Shown piece after piece: positions 6,203 to 32,511 of a DNA stretch of 64,000 bases. Position 1 is the first letter of the stretch; every line of letters begins with the position of its first letter. Under the pieces are notes generated by a model. It made no database searches. It worked only from the letters and a program-made list of their open reading frames with translations, and had not been told where the DNA came from. Source of the stretch: Candidatus Woesearchaeota archaeon (GTDB taxonomy: Archaea; Nanobdellota; Nanobdellia; Woesearchaeales; JAGVZT01); contig JAANXH010000043.1 in the NCBI GenBank assembly GCA_018263355.1, forward strand, positions 443-64,442. Direction: 5' to 3'. Position numbers and translations under genes: made by a program.

Positions 6203-7621
6203 ATGATAAAACTAGAATTAACTCAAGAGCAAATTGAAAAAAGATCATTTGATTTGGAAAGCAGGATTAATGGGTTTTCTTTTAAAATAAAAGATAAGTT
6301 AATTTCAGCTGGAAAAAAGCTAGAGGACTCAAGTTCTGAAAGCGCAGTCTCAGCTATTTATTCTGGTTTCTCCATATTGGATTTGATTTGGCATTCAGTT
6401 GTAAAAACCCATAGAAAAGAAAGTATTGTTGGCATATTAACTGCTGCATATATCGGGGCTGATTATGGTCTGTACAATCTTACTGCCAAAAAAACAGGTC
6501 GAATTAAATCAATGTCAAGAAATGTTTTTTCTGGTAAACAAATTGATTTTAATCAAACTTATCCTTATCCACTAGATGATTTACTTGATATATATTCCAA
6601 TGGAGTTGACGAGTACAAAAATGCTGGGCTGTCAAATATCACAGAACAATTCTTTAACTGGGTTAAAAATAGAGTTATTGTAGAGAGTAGCAAGTATCCT
6701 GAAATAAAAGAGCAACTACAAGATGTTAGAGGTAATATTGACCAGATTTATTCTTTTAGAGGTATTTCTTCAAAAGTAAAAAGGAGTGTTGATAAGTCAA
6801 ACAAACTTATCTGGAATAAATTTGGAGGATATCATAATGTGGTTGATTACCTTAAAACACAGGCAAAATTTATTCAAAATTTTGATTATTTGATCTCTTT
6901 GGATGTTTTAGATCATGGAGATCTTTTACCCAAAGCTACTATTTTACATGGTCCTCCAGGTACTGGAAAAACAACCTTATTAAGGATATTTTGCAATGAA
7001 GCAGGTCTTCCATATGAGATGTTTAGCTGCAGTGAAATAGGAAGCCAGTATGTTTTTGGAAGCTCAATAAATATTCAAAATTATTTTGATGAAGCTGCTA
7101 GTTATATTAAAAGAAAAGAAAGTAAATTTGCATTAGTTGTTATTGATGAACTTGATGCACTTGGAAGAAAACGTGCCTATAAATCAAATGGAAGCAATGA
7201 AGACAATAAACTTGTAACAACAATATGTGAGAATTTAGATGGTCATCTTGCAGTAGATGGAGTTTTAGTGTATGGATTAACAAATATGGGAGATGTGCTT
7301 GATCCTGCCTTAACTCGACCTGGAAGGTTTGAAACATGGCTTGAGATGGGTTTTCCAAATAGAAAAGAGCTTAATGAGATATTCAGTATATATCTTGCGG
7401 GTAGGGGAGTTGGAAAAGTTGATGTTGAACATATAATCAACAAATATGTGGATTTAAAGTGGACTGGAGCTCTTGTTGAGAAAGTTGTAATTGATGCAAA
7501 AAGAGCAAAACTAGATAATCATCTGGATGGACAAGAACAATATTTGATTAATACTGATGATGTTTGCAAGCAGATTGAATTATATCAAAGAAGAGATCTT
7601 AATAAAAAATGGCTGGAATAA
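6203..7621 (+). CDS. AAA+ ATPase (classical CDC48/FtsH/Vps4-type single module) with unknown N-terminal domain
   Basis: Walker A GPPGTGKT, Walker B VVIDELD, SRH TN...LDPALTRPGRF. Confidence 0.85.
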   Translation: MIKLELTQEQIEKRSFDLESRINGFSFKIKDKLISAGKKLEDSSSESAVSAIYSGFSILDLIWHSVVKTHRKESIVGILTAAYIGADYGLYNLTAKKTGRIKSMSRNVFSGKQIDFNQTYPYPLDDLLDIYSNGVDEYKNAGLSNITEQFFNWVKNRVIVESSKYPEIKEQLQDVRGNIDQIYSFRGISSKVKRSVDKSNKLIWNKFGGYHNVVDYLKTQAKFIQNFDYLISLDVLDHGDLLPKATILHGPPGTGKTTLLRIFCNEAGLPYEMFSCSEIGSQYVFGSSINIQNYFDEAASYIKRKESKFALVVIDELDALGRKRAYKSNGSNEDNKLVTTICENLDGHLAVDGVLVYGLTNMGDVLDPALTRPGRFETWLEMGFPNRKELNEIFSIYLAGRGVGKVDVEHIINKYVDLKWTGALVEKVVIDAKRAKLDNHLDGQEQYLINTDDVCKQIELYQRRDLNKKWLE

Positions 7622-9456
7622 AACAAAAGAATTGGTTTGAAGTTCAGAGTATGCTAGCTAATGATGATGACCTTATTAAAAAAGTATGTAGTGGGTTTTC
7701 TTCTTACTCTGAGCAGATAAATAGTATAAAAGATCAACCTCTAAGTAAATCGTCTGTTGACAAGATTGTATATCTCACACAAGAGTTAGACGAGTGTTTT
7801 GCAATTCCAGAAAAGTACAGCTGGGTTTATAACCTGGACGATATTGTATTAGGAGCATCTGAAAAAATAAATAAGATTGGTCAACTAAAAGATGAGTTTT
7901 TCAATTCTTTGGATTATTTTTTTGATGAGTTGTCACAGGGATGGGATTCTGCAAAAAAAAGGGTTGAATCTTGGGAGAGAAAATATGGGATAGAAGATCT
8001 ATTAGATTCAAGAGATAAACTAAATTCATTTGCAGAAACATATGATTTATTATTTACACGATTAGGTCAGGATCATCCTATTCTTAATGCACGAATGATC
8101 AGTCAAATTCAAGATTATGTTCAATTTTTAGATGATTTTTCAAATGTGGATGTAGTTTACTTTGAGTTTAAAAACAAATGTAAAGAAAATCTGCTGTTCA
8201 GAGCTGATCCCCCACATAAAGGTGGGAGCTTTTACGCTCTTCACTTCGACACGCAGATTTTCAGACTCAAAAGTCCTCGCCCTAAAGGGCGGGGCTTTAG
8301 ACCCACGGACATTTTGAGTAAAGAACTTGATTCTAAAACAAAACAAGAGCTAAATGTATTAGGCAGAGAATTGAAAAAAATTAGAAAGACCTATGACAAA
8401 ACTTGTGCAAAACATAGGCCTTTTTTTGACAAGCTTAAGCAAAACTCAATATTTGCATATAAGGAGAGATTTATTGATATGCAAGAGCTTGACAAAAGGA
8501 TTGATTATCTTAAGAAAAATGTACAAAATATAGATATTGCACAACAGGATTTAGATGAATGGATTGATTATTATCAACAAACTCTGGATTATTTATCTGA
8601 AGAAAATGAAATTGAAAAAAGTCACATTGAATGGGTTGCTGACTGCAGTACAACAACTCCAAAGATAGTAGAGGATTGGGAAAATAATATATATGTTGCA
8701 GAAAAGATTGGACAAGTAAGTGCATTAAGAAAAGTTGTACATAATAGAGTAGAACAAGAATTAAATAGAATTAAAACTTATTTGGATTCAAGTTTAGATG
8801 ATTTTTCTGACTTGCCTAGTGATACAATTGATCTTGAAGAAAGACTAGAAGAATTACATCAATTCAAAATAATGTACAAACTTATTGGTGAGCCTACACT
8901 TGAGTGTGAAAAAGTACATGAGAAAATCGAGGCCAAGATCAGACAGTCCAAAATTCCCAAAACAATTGCTCAAACTACAAAAAAACCAAGCTCAGTACAA
9001 CAAGATAATATGCCCTATTGGAAACCAATTATTAGAAATCAGAGTGGATATTTTGATATTGCAACCCATTTATTAACAATTGGTTTTCCATCAGGCACAT
9101 ACATGAATATTATGAATACTATGCTTGGAAAAAACAATCAAGGTAGCTGGGCAGAAAAACTTAGAACAGTAAGCCAAGATCTGGAAGATTTACCTATTGC
9201 AGGTTCTCTTCAAGATTTAGATTATATGTATCATTTAGAATATGCTCTTAGGGAAAGTATGAATAGAGGAAATATGGATCATTTAGTTAGCAGAAATAGT
9301 CAAGGATGGAAATTAGCACATCAAGTTTTAAATCAATTAAATAAATACATTTCCATAAGTGAGGACAACATAGGGTTATCTGCAAAACAAATTGAGCTTA
9401 GAAAGCCTGTAACTGGTCCAGAAAACACATACAACCCCAGTTTGGCACTGTATTAG
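7609..9456 (+). CDS. Helical/coiled-coil hypothetical protein carrying a 46-aa in-frame element insertion
   Basis: 615 aa ORF; codons at 8180-8317 derive from the repeat element. Confidence 0.7.
   Translation: MAGIKQKNWFEVQSMLANDDDLIKKVCSGFSSYSEQINSIKDQPLSKSSVDKIVYLTQELDECFAIPEKYSWVYNLDDIVLGASEKINKIGQLKDEFFNSLDYFFDELSQGWDSAKKRVESWERKYGIEDLLDSRDKLNSFAETYDLLFTRLGQDHPILNARMISQIQDYVQFLDDFSNVDVVYFEFKNKCKENLLFRADPPHKGGSFYALHFDTQIFRLKSPRPKGRGFRPTDILSKELDSKTKQELNVLGRELKKIRKTYDKTCAKHRPFFDKLKQNSIFAYKERFIDMQELDKRIDYLKKNVQNIDIAQQDLDEWIDYYQQTLDYLSEENEIEKSHIEWVADCSTTTPKIVEDWENNIYVAEKIGQVSALRKVVHNRVEQELNRIKTYLDSSLDDFSDLPSDTIDLEERLEELHQFKIMYKLIGEPTLECEKVHEKIEAKIRQSKIPKTIAQTTKKPSSVQQDNMPYWKPIIRNQSGYFDIATHLLTIGFPSGTYMNIMNTMLGKNNQGSWAEKLRTVSQDLEDLPIAGSLQDLDYMYHLEYALRESMNRGNMDHLVSRNSQGWKLAHQVLNQLNKYISISEDNIGLSAKQIELRKPVTGPENTYNPSLALY
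8180..8317 (-). mobile_element. Minimal element copy C (138 bp), in frame within a CDS
   Basis: Same core as copies A and B; hairpin CTCGCCCTAAAGGGCGGG; GTAAAGA at 8180 and 8318; removal restores ...NKCKELDSK.... Confidence 0.75.
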
Positions 9457-25414: not shown

Positions 25415-25424
25415 GATTTCACCC

Positions 25425-25512
25425 CATTACATTCAGTTCCTGAGTTGCTCTAGCAACTAATCTCACTTCGCTTTGCTTCGTTCGTGAGTTGCTCTAGCAA
25501 CTAATCTCACTT
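25425..25512. repeat. Stand-alone tandem 44-bp-period hairpin module
   Basis: TGAGTTGCTCTAGCAACTAATCTCACTT at 25441 and 25485; the same module at the same period lies inside elements A (1459/1503) and B (31639/31683). Confidence 0.8.
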
Positions 25513-25992
25513 TCTTTTACTTAATCTCCTATCTAAAACCATTAATGCAGGTTTCGTCTGTCCAACCATTTTTAATTTTTGCACTATCTCATCTGCAGAA
25601 GCTTCTTCTTCAACTTGTTCTTCTACAAACCATTGCAAAAAGTTTTCAGTTGCATGGTCTTTTTGTTCTCGTGCTAAATCAACTAGAAAATTAATTCTTT
25701 TTGAAATATGCAGCTCATGATTATAAGCAGCTTTCATTGTCTCTAATGGATTATCCCATTTGAAATTTGGTTTTTTTATCTCTGCAAGTTTCACTCTGGC
25801 TCCTCTCTCATTAATATAACTGAATATTTTCATTGCATGCTCTATTTCTTCATCTGCTTGTTTTCTCATCCAGTGTCCAAATCCACTTAAACTAAGGGAT
25901 TCAAAATAAGCAGACATGGATAGATAAATATAAGCTGATGCTAATTCTTCGTTTATCTGATTGTTTAACTCTTCTAATACTTTTTTGTTCAT
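25507..25992 (-). CDS. ftn: Non-heme ferritin
   Basis: QINEELASAYIYLSMS, EE.EHA, FLQWFVEEQVEEE ferroxidase motifs. Confidence 0.92.
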   Translation of the reverse strand: MNKKVLEELNNQINEELASAYIYLSMSAYFESLSLSGFGHWMRKQADEEIEHAMKIFSYINERGARVKLAEIKKPNFKWDNPLETMKAAYNHELHISKRINFLVDLAREQKDHATENFLQWFVEEQVEEEASADEIVQKLKMVGQTKPALMVLDRRLSKRK

Positions 25993-30621: not shown

Positions 30622-31101
30622 TTATTTTGATGCTTTCTCTTTCCAGGAAGTATTTACTTTTTTTACTATTTTTACAAATTTAGGATCTAACTTATTGTTC
30701 CACAAATCTACTGCATCATCTATAAACTGTGCTTCTAGTTTTTTATCCTTTGTTAAACCTATAAGTGTGTTTCGAGAAACCAGTTCCATTATATCATTTA
30801 ATAAATTAATAATCTTCTGTTTTTCCTCATCTTCAAATATCTTGCTTTCTTTGACACTCATCATTGAGTTTGGGTTTGGGATTACTAAACCATGCAAATA
30901 TGACGTCCAGGAATTAAATGTTTTTGAGATTCTATGACATATCATTCTTGAAAGATTAGTGCTGACATATCCTTCATTTTGAATAAAATCTTTTAAAAAA
31001 AATATTTTCTCAAGATCTTGAAAACTAGATTTAAAGCCAAGTTCTTTTTTCATTTTATCAAATTCCTGCTCAAATTCATCCAATAACTTGCTGTTTGTCA
31101 T
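30622..31101 (-). CDS. Hypothetical protein
   Basis: Track ORF to 31227; real start probably ATG 31101 (MTNSK), about 31 nt from a TTTATATA box at 31133. Confidence 0.7.
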   Translation of the reverse strand: MTNSKLLDEFEQEFDKMKKELGFKSSFQDLEKIFFLKDFIQNEGYVSTNLSRMICHRISKTFNSWTSYLHGLVIPNPNSMMSVKESKIFEDEEKQKIINLLNDIMELVSRNTLIGLTKDKKLEAQFIDDAVDLWNNKLDPKFVKIVKKVNTSWKEKASK

Positions 31102-31143
31102 TATACTAATGGGAACTAAACTGAATATATAAATAATTCCCTT

Positions 31144-31851
31144 ATGGAAAGTCAAATTTGATGAGGAGAGCCAAAAGCAATACCTGATTGGTGAGCGAGA
31201 CCTCAACAATCGTAAGAAGCTATGCAAAACAGTTTGTCTTCTCTAAATTGGTATTAAAATTTGCTTGCTAACAATTTCACTCAGAATGCGTTGGGTCTAA
31301 ATGTCAGGACTGTTCGTCCTGATCATGCTCAGGAAGCTACGCTTCCCGACAGCCCCTGGCTTATCTCACTAGCGTTCCTAACACATAAATCCTAGATTTC
31401 TGGCTTTAGTCAGTAGCATTATAATGCAGTCACTTTACATATTCGTGCTATGTTCGGCATCCATAAGCTTTGCTTCTGGAGTCTGAAAAGCTATCGCAAG
31501 ATAGCTGCCGAGTGAACAAAGTGAACGAATGCATCTGCTTGTCAAAGTGAAGAGCGTAAAAGCTCCCACCTCTCAGAAATTTTAAATTTCTGATGATGAT
31601 CAGAAAACTTTGTTTTCCGACATTTAGGTGGGAGATAAGTTGCCAGAGCAACCCAGGAACGAAATGTAATGAAGTGAGTATGGTTGCCAGAGCAACTCAG
31701 GAACGGACCAAAGGGGAGTGAGATTAGTTAGAAGTGTAGCTTATAACCTTGGAATGTAGCGAAGCGGAATGAGTACGGCTCTGAACAGCAGATTTTCTTT
31801 ACAAACTGGCAAGCGAACAATATATTTTGGCAAACACATCAAACTTAACTC
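31144..31851 (-). ncRNA. Candidate structured RNA (about 185 nt) interrupted by element B; identity unknown
   Basis: TTTAAATA box about 30 nt upstream of G31851; a 15-bp terminal helix with three G-U pairs (31837-31851 with 31149-31163); nested helices across the insertion. Confidence 0.4.
31281..31802 (+). mobile_element. Element copy B (522 bp), inverted relative to A and C
   Basis: About 170 bp nearly identical to the reverse complement of copy A, plus shared termini (TCAGAATGCG.TGGGTCTAAA ... GCTCTGAACAGCAGATTTTCTTTAC) and extra hairpin inserts. Confidence 0.75.
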
Positions 31852-31984
31852 AACCCCCTTATGGTGTGTGTTGGTATTTAAAGCCCAAAACAGTGGTTTT
31901 TTGTATTGTTTGTTATTTTAAAGTAGTAAAAATAGAAAGATTTATATACTTGAAGTTTTACTTTACTACTTAGAGGTGGTTTTA

Positions 31985-32224
31985 ATGACAGAGTTGTCAG
32001 AACTGGTAAAATCAAGAACTGTCAGAAAGTATGAAGAAAAAGGAGCTGAAAAGGTTAAAACTGACTATAATCCAGATTAAAAGGTGAAGAATGTGTTTGA
32101 TGAACAAACTGACCGAGATGTTCTTAAGGCAATAAGAAGCCGAAAGAAAACATTTGAAGAAGTTGTAAACCAGAAAAATATAACTAATGACGAATTGGAT
32201 GAAGTAATGCAAGAAGATTTTTGA
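31985..32224 (+). pseudogene. 79-codon frame split by one in-frame TAA (or two small genes)
   Basis: MTELSELVKSR...DYNPD*KVKNVFDEQ...MQEDF; RBS GAGGTGG before ATG 31985 and AGGTGA before GTG 32093. Confidence 0.45.
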
Positions 32225-32259: not shown

Positions 32260-32511
32260 ATGGAGTATGAATTTGAGATTGAAAAGATTATTAAGCAGAT
32301 TAACAAACAAAATGCTAAGATTGTCTGTTTGCAGCTTTCAGATGGTTTAAAACCTAAAGCTAAGACCTTACAAGAAGAAATTGAAAAAAATACCAGAGCA
32401 CAAGTTATATTATGGGCTGGAACCTGTTTTGGAGCATGTGATATTCCTGTGGAATTAAAAAATATGAATGCGGATTTATTAGTACAGTTTGGACATAGTG
32501 AGTGGAAATGA
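32260..32511 (+). CDS. dph2: Diphthamide synthesis Dph2 N-terminal fragment
   Basis: LQL.DGLK, FGACD, QFGHS motifs; only 83 aa. Confidence 0.8.
   Translation: MEYEFEIEKIIKQINKQNAKIVCLQLSDGLKPKAKTLQEEIEKNTRAQVILWAGTCFGACDIPVELKNMNADLLVQFGHSEWK

Follow-up and report, generated by a model that had tools for sequence, protein, structure and literature searches.

A well-folding intergenic island in a Woesearchaeota genome, probably a pair of nested non-coding repeats

Introduction

The Woesearchaeota genome studied here carries a non-coding island (31139–31882) between the leaderless minus-strand gene 30622–31101 and small plus-strand ORFs starting at 31985. Its G+C content is raised to 0.39–0.48, against ~0.27–0.30 in the surroundings. 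GC-rich islands in AT-rich archaea are familiar as Hgc RNAs, conserved single-copy small-RNA genes with covariation support. An earlier note on the same DNA had read the island as a structured RNA of ~185 nt, either a divergent housekeeping RNA or a new non-coding RNA, which tolerates or splices a large insert held in one of its loops. Is the island an RNA gene with an unusual interruption, or was it assembled at the DNA level? From the window, the whole 64,000-nucleotide stretch of DNA that was analysed, and from related metagenome contigs, we come down, with some reserve, on the side of the second answer: the 744-nt island is probably two nested non-coding repeats made by DNA-level insertion, a MITE-like outer unit and an IS608-like insert.

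Results

Genomic setting

The genes around the island are ordinary chromosomal ones, comprising an Lrp-type regulator, a diphthamide-synthesis gene fragment and DHH/RecJ-like, transglutaminase-like and Cdc6 genes; the neighbouring gene is only 45% identical to its closest homologue. An 83-aa ORF (32260–32511), which overlaps the start of the DHH/RecJ-like gene, matches the Pfam diphthamide-synthesis model over only the first 56 of its 302 positions (E = 1e-12) and is either the remnant of a truncated dph2-like gene or a very short paralogue. GC skew in the window tracks gene orientation and is uninformative on replication direction. We aligned to the locus Logan contigs assembled from the source study's runs; further runs came from another study. 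Exact look-ups of the neighbouring proteins, with three alternative starts, gave no match, and one with the DHH protein returned four Logan contigs, all from the same locus and each ending within the insert at 31774.

Anatomy and fold of the outer unit

The outer unit and its immediate borders comprise the following features:

31126–31133, minus strand: TATA box TTTATATA, ~30 nt ahead of the leaderless start codon of gene 30622–31101 (ATG at 31101) and 16–23 nt from the left edge of the outer unit
31139–31147, no strand assigned: left copy of the 9-bp direct repeat CCCTTATGG, a candidate target-site duplication of the outer unit
31149–31280, no strand assigned: left arm of the outer unit, with the terminal inverted repeat (31149–31163), GCCAAAA, AATACC, a hairpin (31186–31211), GGTATT and the left strand of the apical stem
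31170–31176 with 31825–31831: inner helix GCCAAAA / TTTTGGC
31179–31184 with 31250–31255: helix AATACC / GGTATT, closing the branched domain
31260–31270 with 31807–31817: apical stem TTTGCTTGCTA / TGGCAAGCGAA
31803–31855, no strand assigned: right arm of the outer unit, with the right strand of the apical stem (31807–31817), TTTTGGC, the terminal inverted repeat (31837–31851) and the unit edge at 31855
31856–31864, no strand assigned: right copy of the direct repeat CCCTTATGG
31875–31882, minus strand: TATA-like box TTTAAATA (plus strand TATTTAAA), beginning 27 nt beyond the unit edge and 31 nt before G31851, past the direct repeat and in host DNA

When 31281–31802 is removed, the flanks adopt the nested, branched fold that the earlier note had drawn, and the 15-bp terminal helix, the inner helices and the 11-bp apical stem are all found where it had placed them. 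The spliced 181 nt reach −43.3 kcal/mol (z −3.5) when folded as the plus strand and −52.6 kcal/mol (z −4.3) as the minus strand, and the energy of the real sequence is better than that of all 200 dinucleotide shuffles. Folded whole as the minus strand, the 744 nt reach their energy minimum with the outer frame retained and the insert nested within the apical hairpin. The arms of the unit are asymmetric (132 nt and 49 nt), and its interior is branched rather than a simple rod. The unit holds no conserved ORF.

The terminal helix spans 15 positions, 12 of which are Watson–Crick and three of which are transitions that read as G.U on the minus strand; the outer unit thus has terminal inverted repeats like those of MITEs, 12/15 complementary. 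An extension of the inverted repeat into the flanks was tested and is not significant. The apical stem has two G.U pairs, both on the plus strand, and the wobble asymmetry reported earlier, with the terminal helix and the inner stem favouring opposite strands, is confirmed. This opposite preference fits DNA palindromes with random transitions better than a single selected RNA strand.

The direct repeat CCCTTATGG also holds up: its only two matches in 64 kb lie at the outer ends of the island, where 0.23 are expected, and we put the chance of a 9-mer repeat adjoining both edges of the unit at ~2e-4. The minus-strand TATA-like box, previously placed about 30 nt before G31851, lies 31 nt from it. 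The left TATA box also suits the leaderless ATG at 31101 by its distance, and the right box stands outside the direct repeat. Within the window, the end sequence of the outer unit, AAGTCAAATTTGATG, has no further match, and no transposase was found among the 20 window ORFs scanned.

Copies of the outer unit in metagenome contigs

The outer unit is multi-copy, with sharp edges and differing flanks. Contig depth rises from ~42 to 200–400 at 31149 and falls from ~180 to 47 at 31855, and a 93-nt unitig (31157–31249) is invariant, with ~3x single-copy depth. About three copies, each at single-copy depth and with different flanks, are present in the same metagenome population, and the remaining copies part from the window sequence exactly at 31149 and 31855. 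Their flanks, L1, L2 and L3 on the left and R1 and others on the right, are unrelated or distantly similar (L1/L2, p ~0.001; L2/L3, p ~0.01), and the left flank of the window shows no significant homology to L1–L3. Several small, near-identical, ORF-less copies at unrelated sites are what a MITE family would present.

Copies of the outer unit free of the insert exist. At least two lack the 522-bp block and one has an altered apical hairpin; the empty copy is present in four runs of one study (X1–X3 and X7). In copy B, which is empty, single-copy-depth contigs fuse both arms and skip the 522 nt, reading ...AAAATTTGCTTACTAATAATTTTACAAACTGGCAAGTGAACAGTATATTTTG... across the junction. In copy C the apical hairpin is replaced (GTAAATTTGTTTGATAATAATGTC), with the stem and the GGTATT strand altered. 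A second empty variant, ...GCTAATAATTTC joined to ACAAACTGGCAAGCGAACGGTATATTTTGGCA, was found in run X6 of the other study. A 550-nt contig from sample X7 bears an empty copy, ~96% identical, together with both flanks. It is the sole copy outside the window for which both flanks were seen, and it has no flanking duplication (left ...ACAAAGATG, right TATGCAGAA...). No contig in the six runs across the locus fuses 31147 to 31856, as an empty site for the outer unit would read.

L1 and L2 share TTTATAAAT and AAAGATG and differ in between, while the unit itself is 96–100% identical. In a low-depth variant the terminal inverted repeat is lengthened to ~20 bp (GATGAAG / CTTCATC).

The same copies bear on a second reading, in which the outer unit would be a transcribed, multi-copy small-RNA cassette (promoter, helix-closed RNA of ~185 nt, T-rich tail) spread by some mobility mechanism, and the window copy would be a paralogue disrupted by, or tolerating, a transposon in its apical loop. 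The fold, better than shuffles on both strands, and the GC above background point this way, as do the terminal-helix imperfections, all G.U on the minus strand. Core identity between copies is 95–100%, against ~70% for the homologous flanks L1/L2, and RNA selection could also produce a core so far above its flanks. The 3' flank is T-rich in L1 and L2 (CATCTTTATT / CATCTTTGTTT). Two independent copies have TATA-like boxes 21–28 nt beyond both unit edges. On the minus strand the box is TTTAAAT, with its first base at −27 in one copy and −28 in the other, in flanks that are otherwise unrelated; in the window this heptamer is found at just 0.03% of strand positions. On the plus strand the box is TTTATAA or TATATAA, at −26 and −23.

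These boxes are also compatible with simple insertion between divergent promoters, and the box in the window lies beyond the direct repeat. Surviving elements in compact genomes usually lie between back-to-back divergent promoters, which leaves the TATA evidence ambiguous. The variation between copies argues against a selected RNA. Read as the minus strand, the apical stem contains A.C mismatches. The window copy and the empty paralogue, copy B, are separated by two stem substitutions, G31267A and C31814T, which hit different apical-stem pairs and are therefore not compensatory. The apical hairpin is moreover swapped in one copy and interrupted by 522 nt in another, so this part of the unit is not constrained. 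No Rfam family matched the unit, searched with the insert in place.

Two exact patterns, a 22-mer from the 93-nt stretch and a degenerate 30-mer that spans all known outer-unit variants, did not recover the outer-unit family from JGI metagenomes, GTDB representative genomes or IMG/VR; JGI and IMG/VR were each scanned with both. This too weighs against the small-RNA cassette, which we hold to be possible but doubtful. A match of the 22-mer in GTDB fell in an alphaproteobacterial coding region of 62% GC and was dismissed as chance; the genome of the window is outside that collection. A search for other copies with a 42-aa query from a spurious small ORF gave no candidates.

The 522-nt insert and its family

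The insert and the modules within it comprise the following features:

31276–31280, plus strand: target pentanucleotide TTCAC, abutting the 5' end of the insert; the other two copies have TTTAC and an empty paralogue has TTTTAC
31281–31802, plus strand: composite non-coding element of 522 nt from an IS608-like (IS200/IS605, PATE-type) repeat family, with the end CTTTAC at 31797–31802
31293–31322, plus strand: left-end module, with the conserved GGGTCTAAAT followed by the hairpin TCAGGAC/GTCCTGA, and AAAT/AAAG 5' of the hairpin foot
31558–31634, plus strand: right-end hairpin CTCCCACC...GGTGGGAG, with AAAG before the hairpin and joints from 31571 to 31683 and from 31571 to 31634
31639–31726, plus strand: two tandem 44-nt modules, each a hairpin GTTGCCAGAGCAAC plus an AGGAACG..AGTGAG box; a stand-alone pair lies at 25416–25512

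The boundaries of the insert are exact, as contigs in three runs link 31275/31277 to 31798/31801 and omit 522 nt, in support of the earlier proposal that the block is a separate element in the apical loop. Two more full copies of the family lie in the window in the opposite orientation, one intergenic (1404–1814, 411 nt) and one of 138 nt (8180–8317). All three obey the target and end rules. TTCAC, TTTAC and TTTAC immediately precede the three copies, each of which ends in CTTTAC. All start with TCA(G/A)AATG...GGGTCTAAA and end with ...GCTCTGAACAGCAGATTTTCTTTAC, and the end sequences of the family are TCAGAATGCG...GATTTTCTTTAC. The left end consists of GGGTCTAAA(T/G) and then a hairpin, and the right end of GTAAAAG followed by the hairpin CTCCCACC...GGTGGGAG. 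Neither a flanking duplication nor a terminal inverted repeat is present in the three full copies.

The empty paralogues read TTTTAC/AAAC and TTTCAC/AAAC (the slash marks the insertion point), with the target retained; the first corresponds to the sealed donor/target form. The insertion point TTT(C/T)AC/AAAC falls within the 14-nt apical loop of the fold, and the predicted loop is a plausible single-stranded insertion target. No tnpA or tnpB lies in the insert, and no tnpA was found among the 20 window ORFs scanned. Module depth in the insert reaches 10–30x single copy, and individual internal modules are missing from many contigs.

The family varies internally. After GGGTCTAAA the hairpin keeps its position, with a stem that differs in each copy (TCAGGAC/GTCCTGA at 31293–31322, CGGGC/GCCCG at 1793–1760 and CCCGCCC/GGGCGAG at 8305–8275), a pattern explained by modules having been swapped or by a recognition hairpin that covaries. 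The loop of the right-end hairpin (31558–31634) contains an extra nested palindromic module (TCAGAAATTTTAAATTTCTGA...), absent from the other copies, and hairpin loops appear to be a general nesting site in this repeat system. At 25416–25512 two tandem GTTGCTAGAGCAAC-plus-box modules stand alone, just downstream of the stop codon of a 161-aa gene (25507–25992) and antisense to the flanking genes. The top strands of the copies 1404–1814, 8180–8317 and 31281–31802 are minus, minus and plus, and the orientation thus flips across position ~18 kb. If a replication origin lay there, all three would sit on the lagging-strand template that IS608-type elements prefer, an arrangement to which GC skew lends no independent support. 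The 138-nt copy lies in frame and stop-free within a 615-aa ORF (7609–9456, plus strand), to which it adds 46 residues. In run X1, one contig (depth 15 versus 49) omits exactly the 138 nt, although the short side of the joint is only 22 nt; this contig may represent an empty-site allele.

An RNA-level explanation of the block must be set against this anatomy. If the 522 nt were intron-like and removed from the transcript, the window copy would still give a functional RNA of ~185 nt; the block does sit exactly in a terminal loop, its own ends are able to pair (UUCAGAG/UUCUGAG), and its 138-nt relative is in frame within an ORF. Such an intron is nevertheless very improbable. The TTAC target, the AAAG guide and the absence from paralogues are fully accounted for by DNA transposition, and the 138-nt copy is missing from one contig of DNA. 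The Rfam search matched neither group I nor group II introns. Junctions inspected by eye on both strands showed no archaeal bulge–helix–bulge motif, the 4 nt of the central helix being unpaired. The existence of uninterrupted paralogues means that the 522 nt entered one copy at the DNA level, with no need for splicing; the earlier suggestion of an RNA that tolerates or splices a large insert gives way to an insert with IS608-type target and end logic. We regard the 522-nt block as very probably a DNA-level insertion of the IS608 type (PATE).

Searches for a known RNA family

The Rfam 15 covariance models gave no gathering-level match in the window, searched as contiguous sequence with the insert in place, and over 30900–32100, again with the insert in place, only chance-level matches at E<=10. 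We dismissed as random a C/D-box snoRNA-like match in the insert (E = 0.08), whose 24.5 bits fall short of the gathering score of 48. The size and the branched fold of the unit would in principle suit a divergent housekeeping RNA, present in single copy (SRP, RNase P or 6S-like) and carrying an insert. Such an RNA is contradicted by a unit that is multi-copy with variable hairpins, by the lack of an Rfam match at E<=10 over 30900–32100 and by absence from all the other collections searched, and we consider it exceedingly improbable. Of the earlier claim, a discrete, well-folding unit of ~181–186 nt stands, and the housekeeping RNA gives way to a multi-copy repeat that matches no Rfam family.

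Discussion

Relation to known elements

Both element types are already known, and so is the nested insertion of palindromic repeats. In IS608, the left end inserts 3' of the tetranucleotide TTAC, and the left guide is AAAG (PMC5027513). For IS608 and the IS200/IS605 family more generally, the sealed donor joint keeps TTAC, and the cleavage site is recognised by a guide tetranucleotide located 5' to the foot of the hairpin (PMC5027513, PMC3201880). The insert family resembles these elements and PATEs, their derivatives without proteins, in its insertion 3' of a TTAC-type sequence with neither duplication nor terminal inverted repeats, and its empty site, as in IS608, keeps TTAC. Its subterminal hairpins carry AAAG/AAAT 5' of the foot, which, judged from sequence, would serve as guides. 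The right end of the family is TTAC, whereas that of IS608 is TCAA, and its hairpins stand farther from the cleavage sites (23 and 29 nt). It also differs from IS200/IS605 elements in a body that is a mosaic of nested hairpin modules without tnpA/tnpB, and in its DPANN archaeal host.

The outer unit resembles prokaryotic MITEs, among them Coxiella QMITE2, the Neisseria Correia elements and Sulfolobus SM1–SM4, in being ~185 nt long, non-coding and multi-copy, with terminal inverted repeats and a stable predicted fold. The window copy, with its 9-bp flanking direct repeat, sits in an AT-rich intergenic promoter region, as such elements do. QMITE2 has direct repeats of 7–9 bp and a core of 113–145 nt; stable folds are known in MITEs, and their flanking repeats decay over time (PMC10969869). 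The outer unit departs from MITEs in being branched and asymmetric, with just 15 bp of imperfect inverted repeat and GC above the host background. In addition, the second copy with both flanks has no duplication, and no parent IS or transposase was found among the 20 window ORFs.

REP/BIME clusters and the Rickettsia palindromic elements are modular, nesting palindromic repeats able to sit in frame in ORFs. The 138-nt copy at 8180–8317 is like them in its in-frame nesting palindromes and has no sequence similarity to them. With Hgc RNAs the outer unit shares raised GC, a good fold and an intergenic position, in a genome of ~30% GC; it differs from them in being a lineage-restricted repeat whose variation is non-compensatory.

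A proposed history of the island

In the favoured explanation, a MITE-like, non-autonomous outer unit would have inserted into the space that separates the back-to-back promoters of two divergent genes, an event that would also have created the CCCTTATGG duplication. Later, the 522-nt composite IS608-like element would have entered the single-stranded apical loop of this unit, 3' of TT(C/T)AC and with no duplication, by single-strand 'peel and paste' catalysed by a Y1/HUH transposase acting in trans. The TnpA gene presumably lies elsewhere in the genome. The outer unit itself would move by transposition, and its good fold would be a by-product of palindromic repeat architecture rather than a selected RNA function.

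We consider a MITE-like, mobile outer unit somewhat more probable than not. Several observations count against it: the flanking duplication occurs at the window copy only, the X7 copy having none; the core is far better conserved than the homologous flanks L1/L2; the interior is branched and asymmetric; TATA-like boxes lie outside both edges in two copies; and the 20 window ORFs scanned include neither tnpA nor a transposase with matching ends. A further variant of the cassette idea would make the outer unit a mobile small-RNA gene of DPANN archaea, with a TATA element ~27 nt outside its edge, paralogues kept by selection and an apical loop that serves as the preferred landing pad for TTAC transposons. 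We judge this variant unlikely. If it were true, the island would reveal two tiers of structured non-coding parasites or symbionts targeting one another's loops, and a transcribed mobile RNA cassette would be an unusual route for spreading archaeal small-RNA genes.

Implications

With the MITE-like unit and its IS608-like insert as the preferred reading, a candidate for a new structured or self-splicing RNA is replaced by a concrete nested-repeat anatomy. For archaeal genome annotation this is a caution, as a GC-rich island that folds well, set in an AT-rich archaeal genome, can be a stack of mobile palindromes rather than an RNA gene. For the organism, it means an IS608-type, TTAC-targeting family of miniature transposons active in a reduced DPANN genome, with copies that differ between paralogues and, in one case, possibly between alleles. 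The family enters the hairpin loops of other repeats and inserts even in frame in genes.
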